A DNA stretch of 64,000 nucleotides from a phage: sequence record PZ583741.1. One strand, 5' to 3'. The notes beneath the pieces were generated by a model. That model was not told where the DNA came from. It made no database searches and was given only the letters and a program-made list of their open reading frames with translations. The position numbers were made by a program, and so were the translations under genes. Below, piece by piece: positions 2,750 to 54,314 of the stretch (the stretch's first letter is position 1; each line of letters begins with the position of its first letter).

Positions 2750-2774
2750 TCATCATCACGTAAATGAATCTACA

Positions 2775-3215
2775 TCAATCCACATCAAAAGGCAAGCCAA
2801 AATAGGTCAACACTGCAATCTTTATCTGGTCGAGTCCACACGCCACCGCAGAGAATGCACCAGCGCTGGCGCTATCGTTGAGAAACGGTATCTGTCCTGG
2901 TTGCCATTTGCTAAGCGTTGAATCATGGCGCTTCAACTCTATCGTCGCTTTATGCCACCCACCCCCGGGCGTCAGGATTATCACATCAGACACCCCTGAC
3001 CTGACACCTTTCCTTGCGCGCGATGCAAGATGCTGCACTGAGTTGCTTTTGGTCTCCTGAGACGGATGGAACCACAGCACATCAGGAAACCGGTAATCCA
3101 TCCACCACTTGAACGCTATCAATTCGGAATCCTCAAGCGGACACTCGCCGCGGTAACCATCATCAAAAATTAATACCTTGTCACTCAGCTCATGCTGCTT
3201 GAATCGCTTTTTCAC
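2775..3215 (-). CDS. VRR-NUC domain nuclease
   Basis: 146 aa; D...IELKR PD-(D/E)XK core; homolog of B 52676..53095; overlaps helicase 3' end. Confidence 0.55.
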   Translation of the reverse strand: MKKRFKQHELSDKVLIFDDGYRGECPLEDSELIAFKWWMDYRFPDVLWFHPSQETKSNSVQHLASRARKGVRSGVSDVIILTPGGGWHKATIELKRHDSTLSKWQPGQIPFLNDSASAGAFSAVACGLDQIKIAVLTYFGLPFDVD

Positions 3216-5124
3216 TATTCTCTCCTGTAAAATCTTTTCTGTGGATTATGTCGCGACCTTTATCATTAATACGATGCGTGATGCGTTTTGGCGCTTTAAT
3301 CAATCCCGCATACATCATGAACTGCTTGGCGTTCTGGCATTTCAGGATTTTTCCAGCCATTGACTTATCATCAAGGTGAGGAAATACTGCCTTTGCCTTG
3401 AACATATTTTTCATGTGAGTTGCGCCGCCATAAGGGTAGAAAACTTCGTTAGCCCAGCCTTCTTTGCCATCACAACGATTAATCCAGTAGCGATATAAAA
3501 TACCATCTCCATCCTTCGTTAACTGGACTTTGAAATCCATAACATCAGCCCACTCATTATCCGTATACGCACGCTCATTCAGTGCCGCATTCGGGTCACG
3601 CAAAACATGATCACAATGCCGGCAATAGCGCGCTGTCGGGTCGTTTTTAGTACCGCATCCATCATCAAAAATACGGATTCCATGCTTATCGAAGCCGCAA
3701 CGGATGTAACTGAAAAACTCCTCGCAGCGACCATCTTGCGACAATGCATCTTTGCCAATGCAGCGGCGCGCAGATGGGCTGTTCATTGTTCCGCATTTCG
3801 GACACGGAACTTGTTCGCCGCTGCGTTTTGAACGTTGCGCTTCAGCCTCTTCCAGAATAGGGTCTTCATACAGCTGACCAAGCTCAAACATCGTTCCTGA
3901 GAAATCAAGAACCAGATGGTCTTCTTTATGATACCCGGCATCAATTTGCTCTTTCTTCAGCAGGCGCATTCCGCGACCAAGCAGCTGAACAAGAAGAGTG
4001 AGTGACATTATTTTTCGTAATATGCAGCTCGTATCCCATAACGGTATATTTACGCCAGTGGTAAGGGCTGCTATCTGGAATGTGAATTTTTTACGCCCGG
4101 TGTATGCATCTTTTAGAGCCTTCCTTCTGGCTTTTGACCCAATATCTTCTGTAACTATTGAATAACTTCCTTCAGGCAAATATTTTGCCGCCTCCTGGCA
4201 ATGCTTTTTACCAGCACATGTAATTAGCACTCCGTTCCTGTTTTTAGTCAACTCCATAACCTTGAGCATGATTTTCTGCGTCAACGTACCTTGCTCAAGA
4301 ATTTCTTTCTGCATCTGCTTGAGCTGCTCGGCGGTAAAGTCCTGAGTGCCATCAACATCTGAACCATGAAAATCCGAAAGGTCATAATGCAGACTATCAA
4401 CATCATGAAGACCAAAAATTGTTGGCACAAGAAAACCGTTTTCAACCATGTACTTGGTGTCTATGTTGATAATCTCTTTCTTCCAGAAAGCGCCTTTTAT
4501 TGATGTAGTTCCGCGAAACGGTGAGCCTGTATAACCTATTATTCTTAACTCATGGCCGTGCTTATCTTTGCACCTTTTCATTAGCTCATTAATTATCACT
4601 GCATACTGCGTATCACCATCATTAACAACGTCAATGTCATTAACCATATGATTTTCATCGATCAGCAGAAATCTTGGGCAAAAGTCAGAAAGCGCGCCTT
4701 TTGCAATAACATTCCCTGACTCATCCTTTTTGTCAAACAAAGCATTTGCAACAGTACCCTCAGAGCCACAGATTATTGGGTACGTAGAACTTTTCCTACC
4801 CAACGAAGCACTGAATAGTGAGTTTCTAACACCAAGCGCCCATAGCTCTTCCGCATCTTGCTCCACTATTTCGCCCTGTCTTGATAAAATCATCCCTGAA
4901 TAGCCCATTTCCTGAAAACGCTTTGCTATCATGGCAATCATTAGTGACTTTCCGCTACCGACGCTTGCTGTTACATAGCTCGGGCCAACATAATGACGAA
5001 TAACATCGCCAGTTAACTTATATATCAACCACTGATAAGGTCTTGGCTCGATATCACCAGTATCCAAGCAGGATTTCAGCAAGTTAATGTCAATCTCTGA
5101 AATCATCTTGTCTATTTTGTGCAT
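3190..5124 (-). CDS. SF2 DNA helicase with C-terminal zinc ribbons
   Basis: 644 aa; Walker A GSGKS, DExH-like LIDENH, motif VI LLGRGMR, CPKCG/CRHC zinc ribbons. Confidence 0.8.
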   Translation of the reverse strand: MHKIDKMISEIDINLLKSCLDTGDIEPRPYQWLIYKLTGDVIRHYVGPSYVTASVGSGKSLMIAMIAKRFQEMGYSGMILSRQGEIVEQDAEELWALGVRNSLFSASLGRKSSTYPIICGSEGTVANALFDKKDESGNVIAKGALSDFCPRFLLIDENHMVNDIDVVNDGDTQYAVIINELMKRCKDKHGHELRIIGYTGSPFRGTTSIKGAFWKKEIINIDTKYMVENGFLVPTIFGLHDVDSLHYDLSDFHGSDVDGTQDFTAEQLKQMQKEILEQGTLTQKIMLKVMELTKNRNGVLITCAGKKHCQEAAKYLPEGSYSIVTEDIGSKARRKALKDAYTGRKKFTFQIAALTTGVNIPLWDTSCILRKIMSLTLLVQLLGRGMRLLKKEQIDAGYHKEDHLVLDFSGTMFELGQLYEDPILEEAEAQRSKRSGEQVPCPKCGTMNSPSARRCIGKDALSQDGRCEEFFSYIRCGFDKHGIRIFDDGCGTKNDPTARYCRHCDHVLRDPNAALNERAYTDNEWADVMDFKVQLTKDGDGILYRYWINRCDGKEGWANEVFYPYGGATHMKNMFKAKAVFPHLDDKSMAGKILKCQNAKQFMMYAGLIKAPKRITHRINDKGRDIIHRKDFTGENSEKAIQAA

Positions 5125-6658: not shown

Positions 6659-6661
6659 AAG

Positions 6662-6688
6662 AAACCCTCCAATCGGAGGGTTTTTGTT
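6662..6688. terminator. rho-independent terminator (ccctcc-aatc-ggaggg plus T-run), between convergent genes
   Basis: Hairpin and TTTTTGTT read directly. Confidence 0.6.
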
Positions 6689-6689
6689 A

Positions 6690-10670: not shown

Positions 10671-11068
10671 GTGAAGTTAAAACATACGCAGTGAATTGCA
10701 ATGACGCATGGCTAAACACCGAAGGTGATAACATCTCCGGGTCATACGTTAAGTACAAAGACCATCAGGAAGTGGTTGCCGCTATTGAGGCCAAGTGCGC
10801 GGCGCTAGCAGCGGAGAATGCGGCGCTTAAACAGTCGGAGAAGGAATTTAATAACTTCTGTCGTCAGGAGTACTACGGTTGGGAGGACAACTTCACGGAA
10901 ACCCCAGCCACCGATGATTTTCTGGTTGAAATTGAACGCAAAGCAATCCGCAAGTTCATTAACAGTATTGAACACATTCTTCGCGACAAGTTGTCACCGT
11001 ATGACACAGAAGAGATGCTTGAGGATATGCGTATTTTCCTGGAAGAGCAGAGTGGTGAGCAAAAATGA
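10667..11068 (+). CDS. hypothetical protein
   Basis: 133 aa ORF, start overlaps upstream stop (ATGA). Confidence 0.4.
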   Translation: MSEVKTYAVNCNDAWLNTEGDNISGSYVKYKDHQEVVAAIEAKCAALAAENAALKQSEKEFNNFCRQEYYGWEDNFTETPATDDFLVEIERKAIRKFINSIEHILRDKLSPYDTEEMLEDMRIFLEEQSGEQK

Positions 11069-11367
11069 CAATCACAAAACAACGTGTAGAAGAAATAATA
11101 TCGCGCATTGAAATGTATGGGCATGGTGCCGGGTATACCGCAGAAGAGGTTTATGACCTTGCTATACTGGCGCTGAATTTATCAAATATCGCAAACCTGA
11201 AGCGATACGAACTTGATATGGATGGTTGCGACTCGTGCGGTCAGGATTGTGGCGCTGACATGAGCGAAGACCCTGAAGGCGAATTTGTCATGTTCGACGA
11301 TGTTGTCAAGATGGTTCAGTTCGACACTACCAACCTGCAATTCGAAAGCCTGGCTAAAAGTGAATAG
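11065..11367 (+). CDS. hypothetical protein
   Basis: 100 aa ORF, overlapping start. Confidence 0.4.
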   Translation: MTITKQRVEEIISRIEMYGHGAGYTAEEVYDLAILALNLSNIANLKRYELDMDGCDSCGQDCGADMSEDPEGEFVMFDDVVKMVQFDTTNLQFESLAKSE

Positions 11368-11512
11368 CTACCCGTTCATATTAATTATCAGTGCGCTCTA
11401 TGTGTCGCACGCTTTAGTGGAGGCATACCAATGAACAACCACAAACGACGCCGATACACCACTGGCGCTAAAATCTTCCTTGCTGTTTATGTGCTGGCAC
11501 TTGTAGCAGCTG

Positions 11513-11710
11513 TTGCAGGAGTTGTGCATTATGTTTAACGATATCAGTGACGCAATGCAAAACATGTGGGAACGCTACTGGGACGGTATGATGACGTGTC
11601 ATTACATGATGGTGCAGCTCGGCAATCGCATTGAGGTTGTACCTGACAATGGTGTGCATGACATCAAGTACATGTGCTCTACGAGGGATTATGCTAATGC
11701 AAACAACTAA
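11513..11710 (+). CDS. hypothetical small protein
   Basis: 65 aa ORF. Confidence 0.3.
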   Translation: MQELCIMFNDISDAMQNMWERYWDGMMTCHYMMVQLGNRIEVVPDNGVHDIKYMCSTRDYANANN

Positions 11711-11870
11711 AGCCAAGGTTTGGCAACTCGCCAAGCAGCACGAATTGGACGATTTTATAGCGAAGGTTGCCAAAACATTCCCAGATGCGCTTGAAATCGT
11801 TCATGTGCAGACGCAAACAGAAAATGCATGGTGCTATGCTGGCAAGCGTGGTAATGATAGTGTACAATAA
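11691..11870 (+). CDS. hypothetical small protein
   Basis: ATG at 11691 preceded by gaggga; ORF-track start 11631 is probably too far upstream. Confidence 0.3.
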   Translation: MLMQTTKAKVWQLAKQHELDDFIAKVAKTFPDALEIVHVQTQTENAWCYAGKRGNDSVQ

Positions 11871-11914
11871 ACGCATAACCACCATTGCTTTCACTCATAT
11901 CATCACCCAACCTT

Positions 11915-11942
11915 TGACCCGCCTTGTGCGGGTTCTTTTTTG
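11915..11942 (+). terminator. rho-independent terminator (acccgcc-ttgt-gcgggt plus T-run)
   Basis: Read directly. Confidence 0.55.
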
Positions 11943-12018
11943 TCATTAACAGCATGGCGTAGAATCTGTTACAATATCGAATAACGGGAAAAAAGCGGAA
12001 TATTGATAGGGTTTATAT

Positions 12019-12435
12019 ATGGCTAAAAAGCTATTCAGTAAAGAAAATCAACCACAAAATAAACGTGGGAAAGACAAGCGTAAGTTGCTCGTTGAAGCTC
12101 TTGAGAGAAAGGGGTTTAGTGAGGAAAAGCTCTATGACGCCATCGTTGAGATGGCGATGATTGAGCGTGATACTGCAATGATGAAAGAGCTTATCGTTCG
12201 ATTCAGTCCGTTACCTAAGCCTGTCGCCCCTGTTTTTGAAGTTGATTTCCCTGATGACGGAACTCCGGTAGAGAAGATTGATGCTGTTATTCGTGGCATA
12301 GCTGCTGGTGTTATACCTGTGGACATTGGAAAGACATTTGCGGAGGTTATCAGGACTGGGCTTGATATTGCTGAAGTTACCGAACTCGCCGCGCGCCTTG
12401 AGCGACTGGAGAAATTACTGGCGCAGCAACAGTAA
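12019..12435 (+). CDS. putative terminase small subunit
   Basis: 138 aa, basic N-terminus, coiled-coil C-terminus, immediately upstream of large terminase; positional inference. Confidence 0.4.
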   Translation: MAKKLFSKENQPQNKRGKDKRKLLVEALERKGFSEEKLYDAIVEMAMIERDTAMMKELIVRFSPLPKPVAPVFEVDFPDDGTPVEKIDAVIRGIAAGVIPVDIGKTFAEVIRTGLDIAEVTELAARLERLEKLLAQQQ

Positions 12436-12534
12436 CTGATTTATAATAATTAATGCGGCTAGGGGGCACCCGAAAAGCGACTCATCACCGCCTGCCGCAT
12501 TCACTTCAATGATGCCCTGATGAGGAATCTATAT

Positions 12535-15054
12535 ATGGCACGCAAAAGACTGTCAGCACCAGCAATTGAAAAACTCGAAGAGATTATTGGCGATGGCGTG
12601 ATTGATACGCCTGAATCCGCGGTGTTCGGTGTTGTTAATACAGATAAGCAGATTGTTCGCAAACTAAAAATGACGCAAAGCGGAGTTGATGACGTTAGCG
12701 ACTCTGATATTAACGTTGATCACCTGATACCAGAAAAGCTGGAAAAGCTACTTTACCCCAAGCGAAATAAGATTGTGTTTGGCGGGCGCGGATGCTTAGC
12801 CATCGGCACAATGGTTAGGATGTTTGATGGTAGCCTAAAACGCGTAGAGGATATCGCTGTTGGCGATAAGGTTATGGGTCCAGACAGTAAACCACGAAAT
12901 GTTTTAAGCATCTGCCGTGGGTTTGATGACATGTATACGGTTCATCAAAAATATGCTGAGGACTACACTGTCAACTCAAGTCACATACTGTCATTACGAA
13001 AGATTCCATCTGCTATCAGTGACGAGACAAAAACACCGGATGGTAAAAGAATTTATCGTTATTACCCAAATGACCCTGAAATACTTAATATCGGTGTTTC
13101 AGAATATTTGTCGCGCGCAACTTCCACGAAGTTCCGTCATGTCTTTAAAGGGTGGCGAACAGGATGGGATTTTCAGGAACAAAGCGTTCCAATTGACCCG
13201 TACTTTCTTGGTTTATGGTTAGGTGATGGCTCATCTCGTAGTGTTGAAGTATGCACGCCTGATCCAGAGATAGTTGACTACCTTCACGGTGTGGCAAGCC
13301 AATATGGGATGCAGGTAAAGGTTCGCGACGATGATAGATGCCCTGTCTATGCGATAACTAATGGTCGAGCTGCTGGCATGGGGAAAAACACCAACCCTTT
13401 ACTAACTAAAATGCAGCAGCTTGGGGTGATTAATAATAAACACATACCTGACTGCTATATTAAAAACAGCAGACAGGTAAGACTTCAGATTCTGGCTGGG
13501 CTATTGGATACTGATTCGCATTACCACAAAGAAAAGAAAAGCTATTGTTTTACATCAATAAATAAAGATATAGCCTTCTCTTTGATGGATGTGGCAAGAT
13601 CACTTGGCTTCAAGTCAAGCATAATCAAAAAGACCGATGTCACCTTTGAGTATAAAGGTGAGAAAAGAATATACGAAAAGGATGTGTGGGAGGTGTTCGT
13701 TAGTGGTGAACTTCATACAATCCCATGCCGAGTAAAAAGGAAGATAGCAGAGAAAACCAAGTCAACCCGTGGAAAGATGACTGAGGTGTCATTGTCTTAT
13801 GCCGGGCATGGTGTATACGCTGGATTCACTCTTGATGGCGATCATCTTTTCTTGCTTGCTGATGGCACAGTTACACACAACAGCGGAAAAACAAGAACAG
13901 TAACTACAATACTTACGGAGCGTGCACGCTTTAAGCCTGACAGGATAGCTTGTTTCCGTGAGATTCAGCAGTCTATTGAGGATAGTTCGTATCAGGAACT
14001 GAAAGACGAGATTGACAGGAAGGGCGAGACAAAAGAGTTTCGCGTAATCAACAACGAAATAACACACAAGGTAACGAAAGCAAAGTTCCGCTTTAAAGGT
14101 CTGTATCGCAACCAGACGACCGTTAAAGGCTTTGCTGGCATTACAGTCGCTTGGGTTGAGGAGGCTGAAAACGTTAGCCAGACAAGCTGGGAAATCCTCA
14201 CTCCAACTGTTCGCGCTGATGGCTCTGAGATATGGGTGACATTCAACCCAAATAAGGAGCATGACCCCACATGGAAGACGTGGGTTGAGCCGTTTTATAG
14301 CAAACTGCGCTCAAGTGGCGGTATTTACGAAGACGAAGAAAACCTGATTATTGAATGTAACTATTCAGATAATCCGTGGTTTTGGGATACGCCACTACCC
14401 AGCCAAATGCAACGAATGAAAGAGACAGACTTCGACCGCTATCAATGGGTTTGGGGTGGTCGCTTTAACAAGAGGAATGACGAGCAGGTCTTTGGCGGCA
14501 AATGGCGCATTGATAACTTTGAGGTTAAACCTGAATGGCACGGCCCATACTTCGGGATGGACTTCGGGTTTTCCACTGATCCTACCGCAATGATTGAAGT
14601 TTACATCGAAGAACTACCAGGTGCACGGCGCAACATTTATATTAATCGCGAATATGGCAAGGTTGGCCTTGAGATTACCGATACACCAGCTGCGATGGAG
14701 CAATCATTCCCGATGGCTAAGCGCGCGCGATGGTATGCAGACTGCGCTCGACCGGAAACCATCAGCCACATCAAGCGTTCTGGCTTTGATATTCATCCAT
14801 GCACAAAATGGCCGGGAAGCGTTGAGGATGGCGTAACGTGGCTGCGCGGCTGCGACAGTATCATCATCCATGAGCGATGCAAGGAAATGCAGAATGAAGC
14901 GGCAATGTACAGCTATAAGGTTGATAAGCTGACCGGAAATGTACTCACGGATATTGTTGATGCATATAACCATTACTGGGATGCCGTTCGCTATGCGCTT
15001 AATGACCACATCGTCCAGCGCGGTAGCGGAATGCTAATCCGGCGCAGGAGATAA
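12535..15054 (+). CDS. terminase large subunit, intein-containing precursor
   Basis: Exteins give GGRG|SGKT Walker A, WVEEAE, VTFNPN, GMDFGF..DPTA, ADCARPE, NHYWDAVRYAL; ORF track starts at 12520, ATG at 12535 has a better RBS. Confidence 0.85.
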   Translation: MARKRLSAPAIEKLEEIIGDGVIDTPESAVFGVVNTDKQIVRKLKMTQSGVDDVSDSDINVDHLIPEKLEKLLYPKRNKIVFGGRGCLAIGTMVRMFDGSLKRVEDIAVGDKVMGPDSKPRNVLSICRGFDDMYTVHQKYAEDYTVNSSHILSLRKIPSAISDETKTPDGKRIYRYYPNDPEILNIGVSEYLSRATSTKFRHVFKGWRTGWDFQEQSVPIDPYFLGLWLGDGSSRSVEVCTPDPEIVDYLHGVASQYGMQVKVRDDDRCPVYAITNGRAAGMGKNTNPLLTKMQQLGVINNKHIPDCYIKNSRQVRLQILAGLLDTDSHYHKEKKSYCFTSINKDIAFSLMDVARSLGFKSSIIKKTDVTFEYKGEKRIYEKDVWEVFVSGELHTIPCRVKRKIAEKTKSTRGKMTEVSLSYAGHGVYAGFTLDGDHLFLLADGTVTHNSGKTRTVTTILTERARFKPDRIACFREIQQSIEDSSYQELKDEIDRKGETKEFRVINNEITHKVTKAKFRFKGLYRNQTTVKGFAGITVAWVEEAENVSQTSWEILTPTVRADGSEIWVTFNPNKEHDPTWKTWVEPFYSKLRSSGGIYEDEENLIIECNYSDNPWFWDTPLPSQMQRMKETDFDRYQWVWGGRFNKRNDEQVFGGKWRIDNFEVKPEWHGPYFGMDFGFSTDPTAMIEVYIEELPGARRNIYINREYGKVGLEITDTPAAMEQSFPMAKRARWYADCARPETISHIKRSGFDIHPCTKWPGSVEDGVTWLRGCDSIIIHERCKEMQNEAAMYSYKVDKLTGNVLTDIVDAYNHYWDAVRYALNDHIVQRGSGMLIRRRR
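12793..13881 (+). mobile_element. intein (363 aa) with LAGLIDADG homing endonuclease domain inserted in terminase Walker A
   Basis: Starts with Cys (tgc 12793), ends His-Asn (cac aac 13876-13881), +1 residue Ser; LGLWLGDGS and LAGLLDTDS motifs; flanks reconstitute GGRGSGKT. Confidence 0.8.
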
Positions 15055-15060
15055 AAATAA

Positions 15061-15088
15061 AGCCCTCATCTGAGGGCTACTTTCATTT
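15061..15088. terminator. hairpin agccctca-tc-tgagggct after terminase
   Basis: Read directly; weak U-run. Confidence 0.4.
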
Positions 15089-15235
15089 AATCAATGCTCG
15101 TCGACCAAGTTCAGCAATCCATTCCGCCGCATCCTCTATTTTGTTGAACTCATAAAGATGCTTGCCGTCTTCCATGACATAAAACAGAATGCGACCAAAT
15201 TTATTTTTCTTTGCGCTAAATTTAACATCTTTCAT
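15083..15235 (-). CDS. hypothetical small protein (50 aa)
   Basis: Short minus-strand ORF between terminators; not in ORF track. Confidence 0.2.
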   Translation of the reverse strand: MKDVKFSAKKNKFGRILFYVMEDGKHLYEFNKIEDAAEWIAELGRRALIK

Positions 15236-15387
15236 ATTTTCACTCCTTCCGTTTCATGAGTTCAATCTACATCACAAGCATATCCACGTCAACATTTATT
15301 GTTGTTGATAAATCTGCATCACCACACTTGACCAATCTACACCGAGCGCATAGTATAATCTACATCAGGCTTACCGGAGATATCACT

Positions 15388-15594
15388 ATGCGCAGCTATG
15401 CAGGATTTACACAGGAGGAAAAAGAACAGGTTTATTCACTGGCGCGGGCTGGCGTGCCTGATGAGGTGATTTGCTGTCGGTATGATATCGACGAGGACTT
15501 CCTGCTGCGTGTTATTGATGACGTTTTCGTTAACCTGCAAGAGAAGCGAGGATATAAGGGTATCTGCTGCAAGAATGATTTTTTGAGAGGGTGA
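15388..15594 (+). CDS. hypothetical small protein
   Basis: ATG at 15388 after ggaga; track ORF 15256 trimmed. Confidence 0.35.
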   Translation: MRSYAGFTQEEKEQVYSLARAGVPDEVICCRYDIDEDFLLRVIDDVFVNLQEKRGYKGICCKNDFLRG

Positions 15595-15756
15595 TGTGGT
15601 GATTATTGAAAAAACAAATGAATGCCACAGTCTGTATATAAATACAGAACTAGTCATCAATTTAAGGCAATGTGACGACTGGGTTCAGCTTGACAAACAC
15701 CAAGCCGCGCAACTAATCGAAGTCCTGCAACGCTGGGTTAATGGTGAGGAGATTGA

Positions 15757-15966
15757 ATGATGAGCGTTTATTTTTATTGCGGTCACATTGAGCGACAAGG
15801 AAGCGTAGCGAGCGTTGGTAGTTTCTGCGGATTATCAATTGGACCTGATGCTGTTAGCGCATATGAAGATGTCATGAGAGCGCAGGTGAAGGAAATCCAG
15901 TCAATCACTGAGAGCGGCGCTTTTAATCTTTCTGTTATTTTTGATAAATTCGAAAAGGTGGAGTGA
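15757..15966 (+). CDS. hypothetical small protein
   Basis: 69 aa ORF overlapping next start. Confidence 0.35.
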   Translation: MMSVYFYCGHIERQGSVASVGSFCGLSIGPDAVSAYEDVMRAQVKEIQSITESGAFNLSVIFDKFEKVE

Positions 15967-16442
15967 TGATTGATTGGGTATCTTTATTTGATTATGATGG
16001 AGCGTCTTTGGTGTGGAAGCATGGAAGGGGAGGTGTTTCCGTTGGCAGCATTGCGGGAACGGTTAATGCTGGCGGGTACATTCAGCTCAAAGTTAACGGA
16101 AGATTTTATTATGCCCACAGAATTATATGGGAAATGCATAACGGTCCTATACCGGAAGGTATGGAGATTGACCACATAAATCATAACAAGGCGGACAACA
16201 GGATTGAGAATTTGCGTCTTGTTCGACACAAAACTAACACTAAAAACGCGCCTAAATACAAAAATAACACCAGCGGCGTTACTGGTGTGAGTTGGTATAA
16301 GAGAGATAAAAAATGGCTAGCACAAATAATGGTTGATGGCAATTACATACGTCTTGGTCTTTTTGATAATTTCGAAGCAGCAGTCGACGTGAGAAAGGAA
16401 GCAGAACTAAGGTATGGATTTCACAAGAACCACGGCGCTTGA
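15963..16442 (+). CDS. HNH homing endonuclease with AP2-like domain
   Basis: 159 aa; HRIIWEMHNGPIPEGMEIDHINHNKADNRIENLRLV, near-identical block in B ORF 22049..22561. Confidence 0.75.
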   Translation: MMIDWVSLFDYDGASLVWKHGRGGVSVGSIAGTVNAGGYIQLKVNGRFYYAHRIIWEMHNGPIPEGMEIDHINHNKADNRIENLRLVRHKTNTKNAPKYKNNTSGVTGVSWYKRDKKWLAQIMVDGNYIRLGLFDNFEAAVDVRKEAELRYGFHKNHGA

Positions 16443-16470
16443 TGATATAATGACCCTTGCAGAAATGTGA

Positions 16471-17764
<1,294 letters not shown>

Positions 17765-17778
<14 letters not shown>

Positions 17779-17950
17779 GATTCACAAGTCAGAAGTAAAA
17801 ATTGGCGACACGGTAATTCACTGCGGTGAGATGAAGACGGTTGGCATGGAAACATTTGGCAAGGATGAGTTTATGGGACTCCTACTGTGGGGTGATAGCT
17901 ATCGCTGCGGCTACAAGATGGTTGAGGTTGTAACTGAGGTTAAGTTTTGA
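17765..17950 (+). CDS. hypothetical small protein
   Basis: 61 aa ORF; followed directly by cassette motif. Confidence 0.4.
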
Positions 17951-17968
17951 ATAGCACGAATTGCTAAA
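17951..17968 (+). promoter_or_regulatory. B cassette motif ATAGCACGAATTGCTAAA
   Basis: Overlaps upstream stop; TATAGT-like box about 22 nt downstream. Confidence 0.55.
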
Positions 17969-18214
17969 CCTTCCGCAAGGCCGTTTGATATAGTGGTCTT
18001 GTTGAAGCAAAACAATCAATCATGGGGTTACACAAATGCAAGTTTATAAATCACCTGGCGGCGCTCGTTACGTTGTTGTTGATGGCATGGTGTACTGCAA
18101 GCCGCTAACCGGATTCACATTTCGCTCGTCAATGACGGTGGATCGATACCTTTAGTTGATAGGTTGGGGATTTCTTAGGTTTGAAAAGGTAATCAAGCCT
18201 ATAATGACCGTCAA

Positions 18215-18232
18215 ATAGCACGAATTGTTAAA
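18215..18232 (+). promoter_or_regulatory. B cassette motif, variant (atagcacgaattgttaaa)
   Basis: Read directly. Confidence 0.4.
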
Positions 18233-18410
18233 ATGGGATTCATCCTGAATGGTATGATCCACACATCAACCACAAGAATGGAAGTTAAGTGACGATATAC
18301 GAACATAAATTCAGCAGTATGGGTATTGATATGCTCCTGCACTATGTAGACGAAAAATACGCAAATCTCATGCTTAATACGCATGGCGGCACAATAACGA
18401 GGATTGAGAT

Positions 18411-18674
18411 ATGAGTAAGTACAACCGTGAGATTATCGGCCTGGATGGGGAAGTAACCACAGTGGATGTATATCGAGTCCTGGATGCATTCCAGGTAACA
18501 GACCAAGCTATACAGCACGCAATCAAGAAGATGCTGTGCACTGGACTTAGAGGGCATAAGGACTATCTTACTGACATTGAAGACTCCATTGAATCACTGC
18601 AAAAAGCCAAGGAACTTTACGATCAGCGCAAGAGTTACGAGCGGCGATACAATTTATCTTTTACAGATAAATAG
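18411..18674 (+). CDS. hypothetical small protein
   Basis: 87 aa ORF. Confidence 0.4.
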   Translation: MSKYNREIIGLDGEVTTVDVYRVLDAFQVTDQAIQHAIKKMLCTGLRGHKDYLTDIEDSIESLQKAKELYDQRKSYERRYNLSFTDK

Positions 18675-18688
18675 CACGAATTGCTAAA
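18671..18688 (+). promoter_or_regulatory. B cassette motif ATAGCACGAATTGCTAAA
   Basis: Followed by gttatagtta and leader cacaccaaacgagagg. Confidence 0.55.
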
Positions 18689-18743
18689 CCCGCTCAGAAG
18701 GGTTTTGTTATAGTTAGTTCACACCAAACGAGAGGAAATAAAG

Positions 18744-18962
18744 ATGATTACTATTAACCTGTCAGATAAACAAGCAGCAGAACTCAAGTCCATGCTTTCA
18801 ATCTTTGAGAAGCCAAATGACCAGGTAATTGCCAAAGAGGTAGTGGCTCAGATTAACAACCAGCAATTCGACGTAAGTGACTTCGAGTCATCGCGCCAGT
18901 ACGAGGCAATGAGTGTTAATGCTGCATACCTGACTAACTGGGATAATGCGACTAAGAAATGA
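18744..18962 (+). CDS. hypothetical small acidic protein
   Basis: 72 aa ORF. Confidence 0.4.
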   Translation: MITINLSDKQAAELKSMLSIFEKPNDQVIAKEVVAQINNQQFDVSDFESSRQYEAMSVNAAYLTNWDNATKK

Positions 18963-19108
18963 TTTTATACATACATGAGTACTGGACGGGGAAGTTTAAC
19001 ACAGTTCGACATGTCCGTGTTTACGAAGATTATGTAAATGCATTCAATCAGCAGAAGGTTCTTGGTGGCACCATCAAGGTTTGCGATGTTGTGGATGAGA
19101 TTTACTAA

Positions 19109-19126
19109 ATAGCACGAATTGCTAAA
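19109..19126 (+). promoter_or_regulatory. B cassette motif ATAGCACGAATTGCTAAA
   Basis: Followed by gttatagttacc and catcaaaactaacgagg. Confidence 0.55.
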
Positions 19127-19182
19127 GCAGTCTTGGGGTAATTTGTTATAGTTACCACATCAAAACTAACGAGGTTATAAGA

Positions 19183-19287
19183 ATGAGTGAATTAATTAAA
19201 ACTATCGCGGACTATCCATTTGCTTCGCTTTTTCTTGCTATTGCAATATATGAAATTGTAAAGATTATTGTCAAATGTATTAAATAG
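19183..19287 (+). CDS. hypothetical small hydrophobic peptide (34 aa)
   Basis: MSELIKTIADYPFASLFLAIAIYEIVKIIVKCIK; cassette upstream. Confidence 0.3.
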   Translation: MSELIKTIADYPFASLFLAIAIYEIVKIIVKCIK

Positions 19288-19301
19288 CACGAATTTCTAA
19301 A
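19284..19301 (+). promoter_or_regulatory. B cassette motif, variant (atagcacgaatttctaaa)
   Basis: Followed by ctatagttacccc and catcaaaacgaaac. Confidence 0.5.
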
Positions 19302-19357
19302 ACATTATCGGGGTATCTTACTATAGTTACCCCATCAAAACGAAACAGGAAGCAGAA

Positions 19358-19537
19358 ATGAAATTTCAACAAGGCGAGCCAAAGCTACAAGTCAACCACT
19401 TCGATGGTTACGCAACATTCATCATAGCCCAGGCTTGCGGGATGCGAGATGAACCTCACGTTCACACCATTCACTTAACAGAAGAACAGGCACGAGAACT
19501 GGCTTACGAAATTCTTGAGCAATTGAACCGAATTTAA
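19358..19537 (+). CDS. hypothetical small protein
   Basis: 59 aa ORF after cassette. Confidence 0.35.
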   Translation: MKFQQGEPKLQVNHFDGYATFIIAQACGMRDEPHVHTIHLTEEQARELAYEILEQLNRI

Positions 19538-19586
19538 CGCGCATAAAACGCATTCTAACGAACGATAATTTAAGTAAGGCGATTCT

Positions 19587-19745
19587 ATGATTAAGGTTGT
19601 TTTTATTGCTGATGATGGTGTTTATCCATTATTATCTAATGGTGATGTTATTTACGTGCAAGACATGGGTTGCGCATATATCTATACAGATGAGTTTGGT
19701 GACTCTTATTATATTGAGAAATGGGAAGTTGAGGAGATTGCATGA
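19587..19745 (+). CDS. hypothetical small protein (tandem paralog 1)
   Basis: 52 aa, MIKVVFIADDG...; paralog of the next gene. Confidence 0.35.
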   Translation: MIKVVFIADDGVYPLLSNGDVIYVQDMGCAYIYTDEFGDSYYIEKWEVEEIA

Positions 19746-19903
19746 TTAAGCTTGTTTATGTGGGTGAGAGTGATTATGTGGCGCTCATTCAGAGTGGTGA
19801 TGTGTTCTTCGCAGAGATGAGTGATGATGGTAGTTTCTACATCGTAAAGAACAAGAATGGCGAAGATATCTACCTTTCAAAAGATGAGGTCATCATTTAC
19901 TAA
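19742..19903 (+). CDS. hypothetical small protein (tandem paralog 2)
   Basis: 53 aa, MIKLVYVGESD...; ATGA overlap with previous gene. Confidence 0.35.
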   Translation: MIKLVYVGESDYVALIQSGDVFFAEMSDDGSFYIVKNKNGEDIYLSKDEVIIY

Positions 19904-20028
19904 TGGATAACTACGAATCACCAGTAGAGTGGTGTAAGCGAATGCAGGACGAAGCTAAAACTGGTGAAGAGGCGATGGCTTACTACGAACTGGCGCAAAT
20001 TTGGATGGAACGTGAGAAGAAAGAATGA
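19903..20028 (+). CDS. hypothetical small protein (41 aa)
   Basis: TAATG overlap; short. Confidence 0.25.
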   Translation: MDNYESPVEWCKRMQDEAKTGEEAMAYYELAQIWMEREKKE

Positions 20029-20168
20029 GCTTCACTGAATACGTTATCGCATGCGAGAGACTGGTCTTTGACATGAAGACTTTTCACTGGTTCATCATCA
20101 AGGATTTAATTAAGCCTTACAAGCAAGGCGTTACGCCAGAGGCTTTTGTTAAGTCATTCTACAAATAG
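20025..20168 (+). CDS. hypothetical small protein (47 aa)
   Basis: ATGA overlap; ends in cassette motif. Confidence 0.25.
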   Translation: MSFTEYVIACERLVFDMKTFHWFIIKDLIKPYKQGVTPEAFVKSFYK

Positions 20169-20182
20169 CACGAATTGCTAAA
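20165..20182 (+). promoter_or_regulatory. B cassette motif ATAGCACGAATTGCTAAA
   Basis: 22 nt then TATAAT, then catcaacacaacgaag. Confidence 0.55.
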
Positions 20183-20241
20183 CGCAGTCGCCATGGATGG
20201 CATATAATTACCACATCAACACAACGAAGAGAGATATAATA

Positions 20242-20388
20242 ATGAAAAATGTATTTGGCATCAGCTATGAAGAAGAGTTTGTTGATTGCCTTATTTACCT
20301 GAATGAGATCTACGGAGATGAGTTTGAATGTGATGGTGATTCACTTCATGCAAAAATAGAACTTGAAACATTTGGGGAGGTTGTCTAA
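20242..20388 (+). CDS. hypothetical small protein
   Basis: ATG at 20242 after agagatataata; track start 20197 trimmed. Confidence 0.35.
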   Translation: MKNVFGISYEEEFVDCLIYLNEIYGDEFECDGDSLHAKIELETFGEVV

Positions 20389-20630
20389 TGATGTTTGGAT
20401 TATCAGAAGCACACTTCAACGCAGTTAAACGCCAGGCAGCAAAGTTGAACGAAGAGTACAGCAAGTTATCGCCAAAACAGCGCAAGGACGATAAGCAGGT
20501 TGCGGCATTGATTTCAAAGATGTGGGAGCCAGTTTTCACAATCATTAGTCGAGACCGCTTTGTTTGGACCAGTGGGTATCTTAAGGGTAGAGTAGGTCAC
20601 GACGAGAATGGGAATAGTCTTTATGAGTAA
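20388..20630 (+). CDS. hypothetical small protein
   Basis: 80 aa ORF. Confidence 0.35.
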   Translation: MMFGLSEAHFNAVKRQAAKLNEEYSKLSPKQRKDDKQVAALISKMWEPVFTIISRDRFVWTSGYLKGRVGHDENGNSLYE

Positions 20631-20805
20631 TTGCAATAAGCATAGGTATAAGTACGCTTTCAGTTCAAAACTTACAGCCCACGACATAAAACTACTTAAT
20701 CTAGGTTACTTCAAATCCAGCAAAAATGAAAATCATGTCGGGGATTATAGATCATTTTATGAGTGCGTTAATTGCGGCGAGATGATTGCGATGGGGGTAT
20801 TATGA
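20608..20805 (+). CDS. hypothetical small Cys-containing protein
   Basis: 65 aa; CNKH...CVNCGEM could be a zinc ribbon. Confidence 0.3.
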   Translation: MGIVFMSNCNKHRYKYAFSSKLTAHDIKLLNLGYFKSSKNENHVGDYRSFYECVNCGEMIAMGVL

Positions 20806-21086
20806 GTGAGTTAACAATCTGGTTTATCGCAGGTCTGATTACTTGGGCTTACTTTTTAATCGTTTAGATTGAGCTTGTTAAAAAGAGCTTGCATCACTGA
20901 CAGGAATTATCTAATATTAACCACGTAGACAAACGAGGCCACCAGGTGGCAACGGCGCACGGAGCGCACTACACGGCAAGTCCGTAGCTCATTAAGTAGC
21001 GTATGCGGCATTAAGACCTAGCGCAAATAGGCAGATTAATCGGCTGTATCAGGCAGCCCCGGAGCCGTAACCGGGACTCATTCAAA

Positions 21087-21164
21087 GCTCTGCTAGCTCA
21101 ATTGGACAGAAGCAACGACCTTCTAAGTCGCAGGTTACTGGTTCGAATCCAGTGCGGAGCGCCA
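21087..21164 (+). tRNA. tRNA-Arg (anticodon UCU)
   Basis: Hand-folded cloverleaf: acceptor GCTCTGC/GCGGAGC, T-arm ACTGG-TTCGAAT-CCAGT, anticodon loop CTTCTAA, 3' GCCA. Confidence 0.7.
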
Positions 21165-21179
21165 ATAAAGGAGTTCATT

Positions 21180-21362
21180 ATGTGGGATGTGAAGTTGTCA
21201 ATTCGCTTAATGGGCCGCTCGTGCAAGAATTGCACTCAAGAATACATCGCGTCAGTTGCCGCAATCAGCGCTGAGGATGCGGTAGCGAAAGTAAAGGAGA
21301 TGTCAGGCGCTGACCCTGACACCCACAAATTCCTGGTAGCTTACGTTCGTGAGCAAAAGTAA
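21180..21362 (+). CDS. hypothetical small protein
   Basis: ATG 21180 after aaaggag; track ORF 21102 overlaps the tRNA and is trimmed. Confidence 0.4.
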   Translation: MWDVKLSIRLMGRSCKNCTQEYIASVAAISAEDAVAKVKEMSGADPDTHKFLVAYVREQK

Positions 21363-21406
21363 AAAGTGTTATACCCTCGTTAAGTTTCGTTTCTCTCGTT
21401 GTTTTT

Positions 21407-21431
21407 AGCCCTCGCTTGAGGGCTTTTTTTC
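21407..21431 (+). terminator. rho-independent terminator (agccctc-gcttg-agggct plus T7)
   Basis: Read directly. Confidence 0.7.
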
Positions 21432-21473
21432 GTCTGCAATATGCTATAATCTGGAATCAACAAAGGAGGATTT

Positions 21474-21980
21474 ATGAGCAAAGCAGCATTAAAGATGGGT
21501 GAGGGAAATTTCAAGGCGCTCTACAACAAGAAGTATGGCGACATTGCTATGGTGGCAATCAACCGCAAGTACACGCCTGAGGAAGTTTTCGATTTCGCCG
21601 TTAGATACTTCTCCTGGGCTGAGAGCGAGGCAATTAAGGCTATTGAGACGGCTGCTTTCCAGGGTGTGGTTAGCGAGAGCCTCGTACACAAGCCTAGAGT
21701 ATTCACCTTAACTGGGCTGGCGCTCTTTATGGGTGTCAATATCAATAGATTCGCTCGCTGGCGTACTGAGGCTGGATACTCTGATGTGATGGAATTCATT
21801 GATAACGTTATTTACGAGCAGAAGTACCAGCTTGGTGTCGCAGGCATCATCAACTCTACCATCGTTGGTAAAGAGCTAGGAATTGATAAGCCGCAGGAGA
21901 TTAAGATTAGCAACAACTCCACAGCTAACGATGTTGACAGTATGAAGGAAGCACTTGAGTCCGTGATCAGTAAGCTATAG
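21474..21980 (+). CDS. putative terminase small subunit
   Basis: 168 aa; first gene of packaging operon; positional inference. Confidence 0.4.
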   Translation: MSKAALKMGEGNFKALYNKKYGDIAMVAINRKYTPEEVFDFAVRYFSWAESEAIKAIETAAFQGVVSESLVHKPRVFTLTGLALFMGVNINRFARWRTEAGYSDVMEFIDNVIYEQKYQLGVAGIINSTIVGKELGIDKPQEIKISNNSTANDVDSMKEALESVISKL

Positions 21981-22048: not shown

Positions 22049-22561
22049 ATGAATTGGCATGATTATTTTGAATACAAAGATGGGAAGATTTACTGGAAAG
22101 ATTACGATAGCGAGAAGCTTGGAAGGAGAAGGATACAGCGAAGATTCATAGGGAAAGAGGTTGGCGGCATTGATAAAAGCCTAGGGTATGTTAGGGTAAA
22201 CATGCCTGGTAAAAAATATTGGGTTCATAGAATAATCTGGGAAATGCATAACGGAGCAATACCAGAAGGTATGCAAATTGACCATATAAATCATGTTAGA
22301 AATGATAACAGGATAGAAAACATTAGGTTAGTTACAATTCAGGAAAATAGAAAGAATCAGTCAATAAATTCTAGGAATAAGACCGGGGTTACCGGAGTCT
22401 GCATAGTATCTAGGACTGGCAAGTATGTAGCTCAAATAAAAAAGGATGGAGAGAATATTCACTTGGGATTCTTTGATAATATTCACGACGCATCGATTGT
22501 CAGGGCGAGGGCTGAATTTATTCTTGGGTATCATAAAAACCACGGGAGGAAAGATGAGTGA
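22049..22561 (+). CDS. HNH homing endonuclease with AP2-like domain
   Basis: 170 aa; HRIIWEMHNGAIPEGMQIDHINH; overlaps the large terminase start. Confidence 0.75.
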   Translation: MNWHDYFEYKDGKIYWKDYDSEKLGRRRIQRRFIGKEVGGIDKSLGYVRVNMPGKKYWVHRIIWEMHNGAIPEGMQIDHINHVRNDNRIENIRLVTIQENRKNQSINSRNKTGVTGVCIVSRTGKYVAQIKKDGENIHLGFFDNIHDASIVRARAEFILGYHKNHGRKDE

Positions 22562-24125
22562 TTTGATAGTTTGGGATGAGTTAAATCATGCGCAGAAGAT
22601 GGCTATCAAGGCCATCTCTGAGCATAGTTTCGAGGGGTTCTTGCGGTGTTTCTTCCAGATAACTCAGGGCGAGAGATTCAAAATGAATTGGCATGCGAAG
22701 TACCTTTGCCGCGTCATTGATGAGATTCTTGAGGGTAAGAGAAAGGATACCATCATAAACGTATCTCCGGGATCTGCCAAAACCGAACTGTTTAGCATCC
22801 ACTTCCCTGTATATAGCATGATTAAGATTAAGAAGGTTAGGAATCTTAGTTTGTCGTTCTCTGACTCATTGGTTAAGCGCAACTCCAAGCGCGTAAGGGA
22901 TTTGATAAAATCAAAGGAGTTCCAGGAGCTTTGGCCCTGCACCTTTGGAACGTGCAGGGATGACGAGATTCAGGTTCTTGATGAGAATGGCAAAGTTAGG
23001 TTTGAGTCTATATCTAAGGCGATGGCTGGTCAGGTGACAGGAAGCAGGGGCGGCTACATGACTGACGATTATAGTGGTTGCATAATGCTGGATGACCCAC
23101 TAAAGCCTGATGACGCGTTAAGTAATGTAAGAAGAGAGGCTGTCAATATGCTTCTCAAGAACACAATCCGTTCACGTCGAGCTAGCTCAGTAAAGGGAAA
23201 AGAAACGCCAATACTTTCCGTGCAGCAAAGACTTCATGTTCTGGACACTAGCCACTTCATGGAGTCAGGGCAAATGGGCATAAAGTTCGACGTAGTGAAA
23301 GTTCCAGCCATAGTCACAGAGGATTACGCCGACACGCTTCCTGATTGGATCAAACAACAATTTATTGATGATGTTCTTTCATCACCATTTGTAGAGCGGG
23401 ATGGAGTTAAGTATTACAGCTACTTTCCGGCAAAGGAGTCAATAGAAGACCTGATGGCTATGTGGGATGCTGACCCGTACACGTTCCTTAGTCAGTACCA
23501 GCAGGAACCTGTAGCTCTGGGCGGCAATCTTATTAATGTGGATTGGTTCCAGCGCCTTAGTGATACATTCATACCTCCAGCCAAGTATGATTATCGATTC
23601 ATCACATGCGATACCGCGATGACCACTAAAAGTTACAGCGACTTCTCTGTTCTTCAGTTGTGGGGCTATAAAGATGCTAAGATTTACCTTATTGATCAGC
23701 GCAGGGGTAAATGGGAGGCCCCAGAGTTGGAGGCTGAACTTCTGGACTTTGAGAAGAAATCAAGGGCAACCAGTCAGTCAGATGGTATCCTCAGAAAGAT
23801 TATTATCGAGAAGAAAGCGTCTGGTATCGGCCTGATTCAATCAGCTGGCAGGGTTATGCGAACACCGATAGAGCCATACGTACCGGATAATGACAAGCTA
23901 ACCAGGGTGATGAGTGCACTACCACAGATTAAGGCTGGTAACGTAGTTCTTCCAGAGTCATCGCCGTGGCTAAACGGATTGCTCACTGAGGTTGCGGCTT
24001 TTACGGCAGATGACTCGCATAAGCACGACGACCAAATTGACTGTCTAACAATGGCGGTAAACCTTGTACTTAACATCGCTGATGATCCTAAGGCGAGACT
24101 GATGCGCATAGCGGGAATGAAATAG
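22554..24125 (+). CDS. terminase large subunit (family different from genome A)
   Basis: Walker A-like VSPGSAKT, ...IMLDDPLKPDD, nuclease-domain-like TCDTAMTT...SDFSVLQLWG; start at M37 of track ORF 22446. Confidence 0.75.
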   Translation: MSDLIVWDELNHAQKMAIKAISEHSFEGFLRCFFQITQGERFKMNWHAKYLCRVIDEILEGKRKDTIINVSPGSAKTELFSIHFPVYSMIKIKKVRNLSLSFSDSLVKRNSKRVRDLIKSKEFQELWPCTFGTCRDDEIQVLDENGKVRFESISKAMAGQVTGSRGGYMTDDYSGCIMLDDPLKPDDALSNVRREAVNMLLKNTIRSRRASSVKGKETPILSVQQRLHVLDTSHFMESGQMGIKFDVVKVPAIVTEDYADTLPDWIKQQFIDDVLSSPFVERDGVKYYSYFPAKESIEDLMAMWDADPYTFLSQYQQEPVALGGNLINVDWFQRLSDTFIPPAKYDYRFITCDTAMTTKSYSDFSVLQLWGYKDAKIYLIDQRRGKWEAPELEAELLDFEKKSRATSQSDGILRKIIIEKKASGIGLIQSAGRVMRTPIEPYVPDNDKLTRVMSALPQIKAGNVVLPESSPWLNGLLTEVAAFTADDSHKHDDQIDCLTMAVNLVLNIADDPKARLMRIAGMK

Positions 24126-24571: not shown

Positions 24572-24583
24572 TTGGAGAAAAAC

Positions 24584-25810
24584 ATGGTCAAGACAGACAG
24601 CTACGCCAATATCTTTCTAGGCGGCAGTGATGGTAGTGAGATTTACGGGAGCTTGCAGAACCAAGCGCCTACAATTCTGGCTTCGCTTTATGCGGATAAT
24701 GCACTGGTGCGTCGAATTATCGACACAATCCCGGAGACGGCATTAGCGGCAGGATTCCACATTGACGGCATTGATGACGAGCCTGCATTCTGGTCTCGCT
24801 GGGACTATCTGGAGTTGACAAGGCACATCAACGAAGCGTGGTCGTGGGCTAGATTGTTCGGTGGAGCGGCAATTGTCGCTATCGTTAAGGACAACAGAGC
24901 TCTAACAAGCCCAGTCAGAGAAGGTTCTGAGCTTGAAACTGTTCGCGTATACGACCGCACACAAGTAAAAGTCCAAACTCGAGAGGAGAATCCGCGCAAC
25001 GCACGTTTTGGTAATCCACTAACCTATCGCATCACCACTAATGAGAGCGATATGTTTTACGATGTGCATTACAGCCGCATTCATATCATCGACGGAGAGC
25101 GAATCCCTAACGTAATGCGTCGGCAAAATGATGGCTGGGGCCGCAGCGTTCTCTCCAGTGATATTCTTGACTCAATCAAGGATTACACCAACTGCGAACG
25201 ACTAGCGACTCAACTGCTCAAGCGTAAACAGCAAGCGGTCTGGAAAGTCAAGGACCTGGCATTGCTTTGTGATGATAGTGAAGGAGTTGGCGCGGCTCGT
25301 TTACGTCTCGCTCAAGTTGATAACAACAGCGGAGTTGGTCAGGCAATTGGCATTGATGCGGAATCGGAAGAATACAGCATTCTGAACTCTGATATTGGTG
25401 GGATTGATGCGTTCCTGGATAAGAAGTTCGACAGAATCGTTGCTCTGAGCGGCATCCATGAAATAATCCTGAAGAACAAGAACGTCGGCGGCTTATCATC
25501 AAGCCAGAATACAGCGCTTGAGACATTCCATAAGCTAGTCGATCGAAAGCGTAACGCTGAACTGCTGCCGATTCTCGGGTTCCTGATTCCGTTCATTTCA
25601 GACGAGCAAGAATGGTCAGTGGAGTTTAATCCTCTGGCTCAGGAATCAAGTAAAGATAAAGCGGAGACCCTTGAGAAGAACGTAAACAGTATAGCAACAC
25701 TAATTGCAGCTGGCGCTATGGATACTAGCGAAGCGCGTGATACACTACGAACTATCGCGCCAGAGATTAAGATTGGCGATGGCAATATCGAACCTAAAGA
25801 ACCAGTCTAG
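24584..25810 (+). CDS. portal protein
   Basis: 408 aa from ATG 24584 (track 24572 is a TTG); follows terminase; homologous blocks with A ORF 16480. Confidence 0.6.
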   Translation: MVKTDSYANIFLGGSDGSEIYGSLQNQAPTILASLYADNALVRRIIDTIPETALAAGFHIDGIDDEPAFWSRWDYLELTRHINEAWSWARLFGGAAIVAIVKDNRALTSPVREGSELETVRVYDRTQVKVQTREENPRNARFGNPLTYRITTNESDMFYDVHYSRIHIIDGERIPNVMRRQNDGWGRSVLSSDILDSIKDYTNCERLATQLLKRKQQAVWKVKDLALLCDDSEGVGAARLRLAQVDNNSGVGQAIGIDAESEEYSILNSDIGGIDAFLDKKFDRIVALSGIHEIILKNKNVGGLSSSQNTALETFHKLVDRKRNAELLPILGFLIPFISDEQEWSVEFNPLAQESSKDKAETLEKNVNSIATLIAAGAMDTSEARDTLRTIAPEIKIGDGNIEPKEPV

Positions 25811-53529: not shown

Positions 53530-53750
53530 TGAAAAAATTAACTTTTGATAAGCAATGGGAGCTATTTCAGGCAATGGCAGCTCAGGAGTTGACTAAGGCT
53601 GGATATAAACATGATGCTTGGGGTTTGGCGTGGTGCCTTGATTATAGTTTTGAAGAAGACTACCTGAACACTGATATTGAAACATGGCGCGACCGCATGG
53701 TTGCTGATATCGAAGAAATGAAGAAAGATTGCCAGGAGGATTTCTTATGA
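53529..53750 (+). CDS. hypothetical small protein
   Basis: 73 aa ORF. Confidence 0.35.
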   Translation: MKKLTFDKQWELFQAMAAQELTKAGYKHDAWGLAWCLDYSFEEDYLNTDIETWRDRMVADIEEMKKDCQEDFL

Positions 53751-53947
53751 TTAACAATATACCGTTCGTTGTTACGTTTAAGCCAAGAAACAACACCCCA
53801 CGGATGGATATTGATGAGTACCTTCTGAAACGAGGAAATAGCTATTTTGTTCTTGAAATTTCCGCAGACTCAGATAGGTATATAGTCAAAAACGATGCGG
53901 GTATTGTTGTCTCAGTTTCAAAATTAGATGTGGAGATTGTTAGATGA
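53747..53947 (+). CDS. hypothetical small protein
   Basis: ATG 53747 overlapping previous stop. Confidence 0.3.
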   Translation: MINNIPFVVTFKPRNNTPRMDIDEYLLKRGNSYFVLEISADSDRYIVKNDAGIVVSVSKLDVEIVR

Positions 53948-54065
53948 AAATCGTAGACAAAGAGATGTTTGAAATTGCGCAGGTTTACGCGATTGATGCC
54001 GTCAAGAATAAATCAGAATGGTCATGGATGTGTGCTAAAGAATACCTAAAAATGGCTTGCGGATT

Positions 54066-54314
54066 ATGATAGTTGAAACAGGACGCGCCGCTGTTTGGGC
54101 GCATTGTGGAGAGGCTGGGCTGCAAGATGACATTAAGCAGATATCCAGATTCTTTGACATAAAAGATATCAGCGTTGTGTTCAATGGTAAATTCTCTTAC
54201 ATGGATGAGCGACCAAGAAAATACGTAAGAGTTAAGCCAGGTGTCAGGATTGATGTTAACGAGTTCCTTAAATCTGAGGGATTCAAGTTTAAGATAACGA
54301 AGCCTAAGGATTAA
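54066..54314 (+). CDS. hypothetical small protein
   Basis: ATG 54066 (track 54057 is a TTG). Confidence 0.3.
   Translation: MIVETGRAAVWAHCGEAGLQDDIKQISRFFDIKDISVVFNGKFSYMDERPRKYVRVKPGVRIDVNEFLKSEGFKFKITKPKD

Follow-up and report, generated by a model that had tools for sequence, protein, structure and literature searches.

Relatives of the locus considered here are also found among T7-like phages. In Berlinvirus (A7, P483, P694), a small gene of the type called B below follows the nucleotide kinase gene (gene 1.7) and precedes that for Gp2; it sits precisely where gene 1.7 would otherwise adjoin the homologue of gene 1.8, a place at which T7 itself has no such gene. Proteins of this type are collected in phrog_38524 (among them Shigella phage VB_Ship_A7 QBZ69011.1, Escherichia phage P483 gp29 and MM01_00008), whose profile is built on the 57-residue forms of T7-like phages. 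The T7 gene 1.8 product (gp1.8), a 48-residue protein annotated as non-essential, is a homologue of the protein encoded directly downstream of B and not of A or B themselves. It is among the T7 genes that, earlier deemed non-essential, resisted deletion in a CRISPR reduction screen (PMC9825161). Our search of the literature on gp1.8, on DUF8272 and on Drexlerviridae with SH3 found no functional paper.

Structural comparisons can be made with the small beta-barrel domains of the SH3 and KOW kinds (Csk, GRB2 and spectrin SH3; NusG/Spt5 KOW), from which the proteins described below differ in standing alone, in measuring only 52-53 residues and in being very acidic. Other stand-alone SH3-like micro-proteins are encoded by T1-like phages (Jk06 JK_67P, the 62-residue protein of EC3a, phiEB49 Gp10 and phrog_29417). 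These resemble the present family in predicted fold, size and phage group (BFVD Foldseek TMq 0.76-0.84), but they are only 17-26% identical to it, occupy other genome positions and display no linkage to a gp1.8-like gene.

Genomic setting

The window, by which we mean the whole 64,000-nt stretch of phage DNA that was analysed (record PZ583741.1), carries two adjacent micro-genes, A and B (Table 1). The region around them is that of a T1-like siphophage (Drexlerviridae, Braunvirinae, near Guelphvirus and Veterinaerplatzvirus), and the flanking sequence has matches of 86-91% in Escherichia phages vB_Ec-G8, EC3a and others. A and B reside in a plus-strand block of small genes in the left arm, upstream of a tRNA-Arg gene and the small and large terminase genes; the tRNA gene is placed as in EC3a and MM01, and a search against Rfam returned tRNA and no other RNA family. 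The label "early region" given to the locus by the first-pass annotation is plausible in view of this position upstream of terminase and of the class II location of the T7-like homologue.

Table 1. Features of the A/B locus and related elements, numbered from the first letter of the window
Feature	Position	Strand	Remarks
59-aa gene (phrog_7411)	19358..19537	+	Conserved left flank of the variable slot; phrog_7411 E 5.4e-34
Intergenic spacer	19538..19586	+	Conserved; Shine-Dalgarno-like taaggcga before the first micro-gene
Micro-gene A	19587..19745	+	52 aa, ATG start, charge -9.5; predicted SH3-like beta-barrel; rare A-type clade
Micro-gene B	19742..19903	+	53 aa, ATG start, charge -6.5; predicted SH3-like beta-barrel; common B-type clade (phrog_38524)
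41-aa gp1.8-like gene (phrog_1312; DUF8272)	19903..20028	+	Joined to B by TAATG
47-aa gene (phrog_22596)	20025..20168	+	E 2.8e-38; ATGA overlap with the gp1.8-like gene; last of the four-gene run
tRNA-Arg (anticodon TCT)	21087..21164	+	Separates the small-gene block from the small terminase gene
Third SH3-like relative (phrog_29417)	53729..53947	+	Distant; 66-72 aa; right-arm block of small genes

Several observations concern the window and its public relatives as such. The 127 nt at 17652-17778 recur without change at 63874-64000 (period 46,222), which indicates that the coliphage carrying A and B is a complete, circularly permuted unit of 46.2 kb. At about 90%, positions 1-17651 are similar to another T1-like phage (Salmonella phage Segz_1 and others); they break off within an incomplete portal gene at 16480..17709, which covers Phage_portal_3 positions 7-291 of 357, and the window has another portal gene, complete, at 24572..25810. 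The window has the appearance of two phages joined by chimeric assembly or concatenation, and not of one 64-kb genome. The plus-strand ORF at 18411..18674 (87 aa), for which we found no Pfam match, has homologues labelled "terminase large subunit" (EC3a Ec3a_05, 261 nt) and "ATPase" (G8), labels that are probably misannotations; the candidate for the large terminase is a 559-aa ORF at 22446..24125. Two records with 85-86% identity to the region, MG065688.1 (Campylobacter phage A110b) and PP134917.1 (Pseudomonas phage PsgS01F), are co-linear with the E. coli phages, and their host labels look doubtful.

Relationship of A and B

The first-pass annotation had described adjacent ORFs of 52 and 53 codons that overlap by ATGA, and both the coordinates and the overlap are exactly as it gave them, with the stop of A and the start of B meeting in gcATGAttaag. 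Its claim that the two are paralogues also stands, the similarity being significant on formal alignment. In a single BLASTP comparison, 17 of 50 positions are identical (34%, with 58% positives and one 2-residue gap; E 8e-8). The Smith-Waterman score, 79, exceeds the average for shuffled sequences (25, sd 5.1, maximum 61) by 10.6 sd, and not one of 20,000 shuffles equals it; with the common MIK start removed, the score of 65 still beats every shuffle (maximum 63). Among the 159 ORFs of 40-80 aa in the window, A and B are reciprocal best matches by a wide margin. Family alignments of 13 and 54 sequences display the same length and the same core pattern, MIK..Y/F...D....GDV....G..Y......G...Y....EV. 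We define an A/B SH3-like micro-protein family by one such alignment (A2), to which A and B conform in pairwise similarity, profile score, length and core pattern; the hmmsearch values for its profile (A 1.5e-22, B 7.8e-32) are partly so by construction, both sequences being in the alignment. Judged by their sequences, A and B are correctly described as tandem paralogues.

Both ORFs are intact in the window, and each has a Shine-Dalgarno-like sequence, the GAGGAG of B falling within the conserved C-terminal codons of A. Together with the gp1.8-like gene and the 47-aa gene, they make up a predicted translationally coupled run, the successive joins being ATGA, TAATG and ATGA. The 47-aa gene occupies the same position in G8, EC3a, JulesPiccard, BEK6, L011, L013, L019 and L027.

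The two proteins are not equally represented in sequence collections. B is clearly a member of phrog_38524 (E 7.6e-17, residues 1-53 on profile positions 2-54 of 57); it is 53-65% identical to the members named above, and shares with them its length, its acidity and its place directly upstream of a gp1.8-like ORF, although it has 53 residues where the forms underlying the profile have 57. A, in contrast, has no match to phrog_38524 at E<=1 and none to any PHROG at E<=0.01. Its relatives reach phrog_38524 weakly (JulesPiccard protein, E 0.005; the fusion protein P0081 described below, E 0.025), and A is tied to the family by its similarity to B when the two are compared directly, and by the profile constructed in this work. 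A search of 5.8 billion proteins with the single sequence of A gave two clusters (P0001 at 88% and P0002 at 71%), and profile searches gave about a dozen A-type clusters. Among 50,697 phage records, A has one convincing match, JulesPiccard bas03_0078 (54% identity, E 4e-9). B-type proteins form about 60 clusters at 90% identity, and the A-type appears from these searches as a rare sister clade of the B-type.

An exhaustive profile search of 1.84 billion representatives recovered about 13 genuine clusters at 50% identity, so that the family as a whole is narrow. Matches of its profile to large proteins were spurious; P0094, the one inspected, is a tandem repeat protein. Scans of IMG/VR with the family alignment, with A and with B recovered few loci: the three Berlinviruses already known, a 118-kb contig bearing a fusion-type gene, and a pair of fragments of doubtful status. 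When A, B, the gp1.8-like protein and the P0081 fusion were searched against Pfam and NCBIfam, no significant family emerged.

A third, more distant relative is encoded in the right arm. Of 1060 ORF segments in the window, it was recovered by hmmsearch with the family profile (E 1.5e-5, profile positions 15-53, "LLKRGNSYFVLEISADSDRYIVKNDAGIVVSVSKLDVEIV"); BLASTP alone finds nothing, and the kinship is supported by the profile search. This protein belongs to phrog_29417 (E 5e-48), to which B has a weak match (E 0.014). The 41-aa ORF that follows it (53944..54069) was compared with the gp1.8-like family and is unrelated.

Age of the split

The similarity of A to B was first read as the trace of a recent tandem duplication, and this part of the first-pass annotation does not survive comparison at the DNA level. 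In a codon alignment, A and B are 49% identical overall and 41% identical when third positions are taken alone; with dN at 0.70, dS has reached about 2.8 and is saturated, and the longest DNA word common to both is 10 nt. The high nucleotide identity and low dS that would mark a recent duplication are thus not observed. The same order of genes, A followed by B and by a gp1.8-like gene, also exists in five other metagenomic lineages (L013, L015-L018, L019, L029), and across five tandem loci the identities are 42-80% between A copies and 51-94% between B copies, as against 25-49% between A and B. Paralogues within a genome are therefore not closer to one another than to orthologues elsewhere, as they would be after a recent event. 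Since each copy is closer to its counterpart in other lineages than to its neighbour, the split between A and B predates these lineages. Duplication in situ in the phage of the window would account for the adjacency of A and B, for their practically equal length and for the first 9 nt (ATGATTAAG) that they have in common, yet the saturated divergence, the orthologous pairs elsewhere and the existence of relatives with A only or B only make it highly improbable. On these comparisons, A and B are real but anciently diverged copies.

A variable slot among related phages

Comparison of copy number in related phages, which the first-pass annotation had suggested, was carried out and reveals that the slot between the 59-aa gene and the 41-aa gene varies in content: it holds neither copy, A, B, both, or a hybrid. 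The 59-aa gene lies at the same position in nearly all related loci inspected, and the spacer that follows it is identical in relatives ahead of whichever SH3-like gene stands first. The 40-60 nt upstream are nearly identical in G8, JulesPiccard, BEK6, SU57, L013, L015 and L019 ("...cgcattctaacgaac.ataatttaagtaaggtgattctATG"). The depositors of SU57 annotated a BPROM promoter in this spacer, while our promoter consensus scan of 17600..21600 yielded no more sites than shuffled sequence and none before A; the spacer is a candidate promoter only.

Most relatives carry B alone (G8, BEK6, SU57, MM01, IMM-001, AN_ECEAS and Veterinaerplatzvirus). A stands alone in JulesPiccard/Bas03, L011/L012, L027/L028, L030 and L031, and EC3a has no SH3-like gene in the slot. 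A and B occur together in none of the 50,697 deposited phage records. A single-copy chimera occupies the slot in L032 (901..1065, protein P0087), where the first ~125 nt (~40 codons) are A-type and the last 40 nt (~14 codons), including the TAATG junction, are B-type; such a sequence is consistent with the leftover expected when a tandem pair collapses by recombination. In L013, the B copy (3156..3317 of that contig) has an in-frame TAA at codon 12 with an ATG directly after it, and only an N-terminally truncated product of 41 aa is called. This stop could be the decay of one redundant copy, or the truncated protein could be a restart product.

These states may also be read in the opposite direction, with A and B arising as alternative alleles of one slot in different lineages and being juxtaposed later by illegitimate or microhomology-mediated recombination in co-infection, for example at the common ATGATTAAG start, so that the A-only and B-only arrangements would be ancestral. 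Such a course is compatible with the agreement of A-only and B-only genomes in both flanks (identical spacer upstream, the same gp1.8-like gene downstream), with the solitary B-type genes of T7-like phages, and with the mosaic pairing of variants, the window and L029 having B copies that are 94% identical and A copies that are 56% identical. The junction between A and B also differs among tandem lineages: where the window, L013 and L029 have ATGA, L015-L019 have an 8-nt overlap (ATGATTAA). These differences could mean several independent joinings. However, the junction differences amount to changes of 1-3 nt inside the same "GAGGAGATT...ATGATTAAG" context, the L032 hybrid is evidence of collapse from tandem to single copy, and one old duplication with repeated loss fits the data equally well. 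We give separate allelic origins a rather low probability.

Selection on the two copies

Comparison with orthologues gives dN/dS values of 0.09-0.24 for B (0.43 against MM01) and of 0.30-0.48 for A (1.05 against its closest relative, on very few changes). These values point to purifying selection acting on both coding sequences. One of the two genes, with A the likelier candidate, could be a superfluous duplicate in decay that lacks a separate function, as the faster evolution of A, the rarity of its type and the loss of a pair member through the L013 stop might suggest. Nevertheless, both ORFs of the window retain their reading frames, Shine-Dalgarno-like sequences and coupling; the A-type stands alone in at least 5 lineages and recurs as fusions in 5 clusters; and dN/dS remains below 0.5 over deep divergence, with the core residues of the barrel conserved. 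Decay of a redundant copy is improbable as an account of the pair.

Predicted fold

Structure prediction had likewise been proposed as a check, and AlphaFold returns a five-strand SH3/KOW-like barrel. The AlphaFold2 model from the 54-sequence alignment has a pLDDT of 92.8 and a pTM of 0.71, and the A-type domain of P0081, modelled at pLDDT >93, displays five strands as in B. From these models, we are confident that the A/B family is SH3-like in its predicted fold, having the beta-barrel that defines SH3 domains. Sequence profiles are less telling: there is no Pfam SH3 match at E<=1, as would be had by a canonical SH3 domain, and the best profile match in the PDB is Csk SH3 (E 0.024, 29 residues covered) among SH3 and KOW matches with E-values of 0.02-0.2. 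Neither the KOW sequence motif nor the Pfam KOW family (NusG/Spt5) was found in these proteins. The SH3-like fold is a generic one and names no ligand.

Linkage to gp1.8-like genes and gene fusions

Downstream of B is a gene whose 41-aa product matches T7 gp1.8 in BLASTP (E 4e-6), as well as a 36-aa ORF of Berlinvirus A7 (E 1e-5). Both the window protein (E 9e-16) and T7 gp1.8 (E 6.3e-15) are members of phrog_1312, and precomputed Pfam tables place PF26839 (DUF8272) on the orthologues of the 41-aa gene in L013, L015-19, L027-29 and L031-32. In all A/B loci inspected, including those of Berlinvirus, a gp1.8-like ORF lies directly 3′ to the SH3-like gene. This order recurs in T1-like phages, in T7-like phages (between gp1.7 and gp2) and in a contig of ~135 kb that is myophage-like.

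The two genes are also found joined in a single reading frame. Six protein clusters represent in-frame fusions of an SH3-like to a gp1.8-like domain, of which P0076, P0080, P0081, P0082 and P0091 are A-type and P0043 is B-type. A fusion-type gene was also seen on L024. The P0081 gene (L020 4001..4291) is flanked by an HNH-like (DUF723) gene and nrdG; the contig, 135 kb long, is weakly similar to E. coli myophages of ~140 kb. The P0081 product is modelled as a barrel followed by a helical hairpin (pLDDT 91.6, pTM 0.74), the packing of the two domains being judged from the pTM alone. A Foldseek search of this model against the PDB matched SH3 structures on the N-terminal domain only and returned no two-domain analogue. 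Most of the fusions come from single metagenome contigs, and some could be frameshifts of sequencing or assembly.

Conceivably, the SH3-like proteins act independently of their gp1.8-like neighbours and the two genes are adjacent because the slot is permissive for recombination. Genes of the gp1.8-like kind are far commoner, occurring in 105 phage records and mostly without an SH3-like neighbour (T7 itself and at least 80 T1-like records lack one), so that the SH3-like partner is optional; moreover, the third SH3-like relative is followed by an ORF of another kind. Against independence stand the recurrence of the same gene order in otherwise unrelated genomes and the repeated fusions, which involve both A-type and B-type domains. 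Independent action appears somewhat doubtful on balance, and a working relationship between the two proteins is the interpretation pursued here.

Interpretation

The locus is an ordinary mosaic accessory cassette of the kind that routine phage mosaicism produces. We think it fairly probable, with some reserve, that A and B are anciently diverged SH3-like paralogues in a mosaic accessory slot, forming with the gp1.8-like protein a module for interaction with the host. This explanation is built on the homology, the age of the split, the fold, the purifying selection, the gp1.8-like linkage and the fusions, and from these we infer function. In outline, A and B are paralogues from a narrow family of acidic, stand-alone SH3-like barrels of ~53 residues in enterobacterial phages, among which recombination may have generated slots with no copy, one copy (A or B), two copies (A and B) or a hybrid. 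The SH3-like barrel would serve as a protein-binding module and could act on a host target jointly with the gp1.8-like helical hairpin, the two probably forming a small complex; phages with both A and B might then possess two binding specificities. The module is apparently dispensable, and it is probably an accessory for host takeover or counter-defence, given that dispensability and variability in allele and copy number are typical of such accessories.

Other readings of the same features should be kept beside this one. The adjacency of SH3-like and gp1.8-like genes could reflect a common insertion hotspot. The higher dN/dS of A and the stop codon in the L013 B copy would also fit partial redundancy or decay instead of two specificities. 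A broader proposal is that the SH3-like and gp1.8-like proteins form a conserved, two-part and sometimes fused host-targeting module in T1-like, T7-like and ~135-kb myophage-like genomes, with A and B as stacked specificity variants that widen the range of host targets bound or defences neutralised; we put this forward tentatively and regard it as unlikely in its full extent.

What is modestly new is the predicted SH3-like fold of phrog_38524, a PHROG without annotated function, together with the rare A-type clade and the linkage and fusion to gp1.8. The link to gp1.8 offers a hypothesis that is cheap to test, namely that the two proteins form a complex on a host target, and carriers of these proteins exist among model phages and in the BASEL collection (JulesPiccard/Bas03), in which genetic manipulation is easy. 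If the two-part module proved true, it would provide the first functional handle on gene 1.8 of T7.
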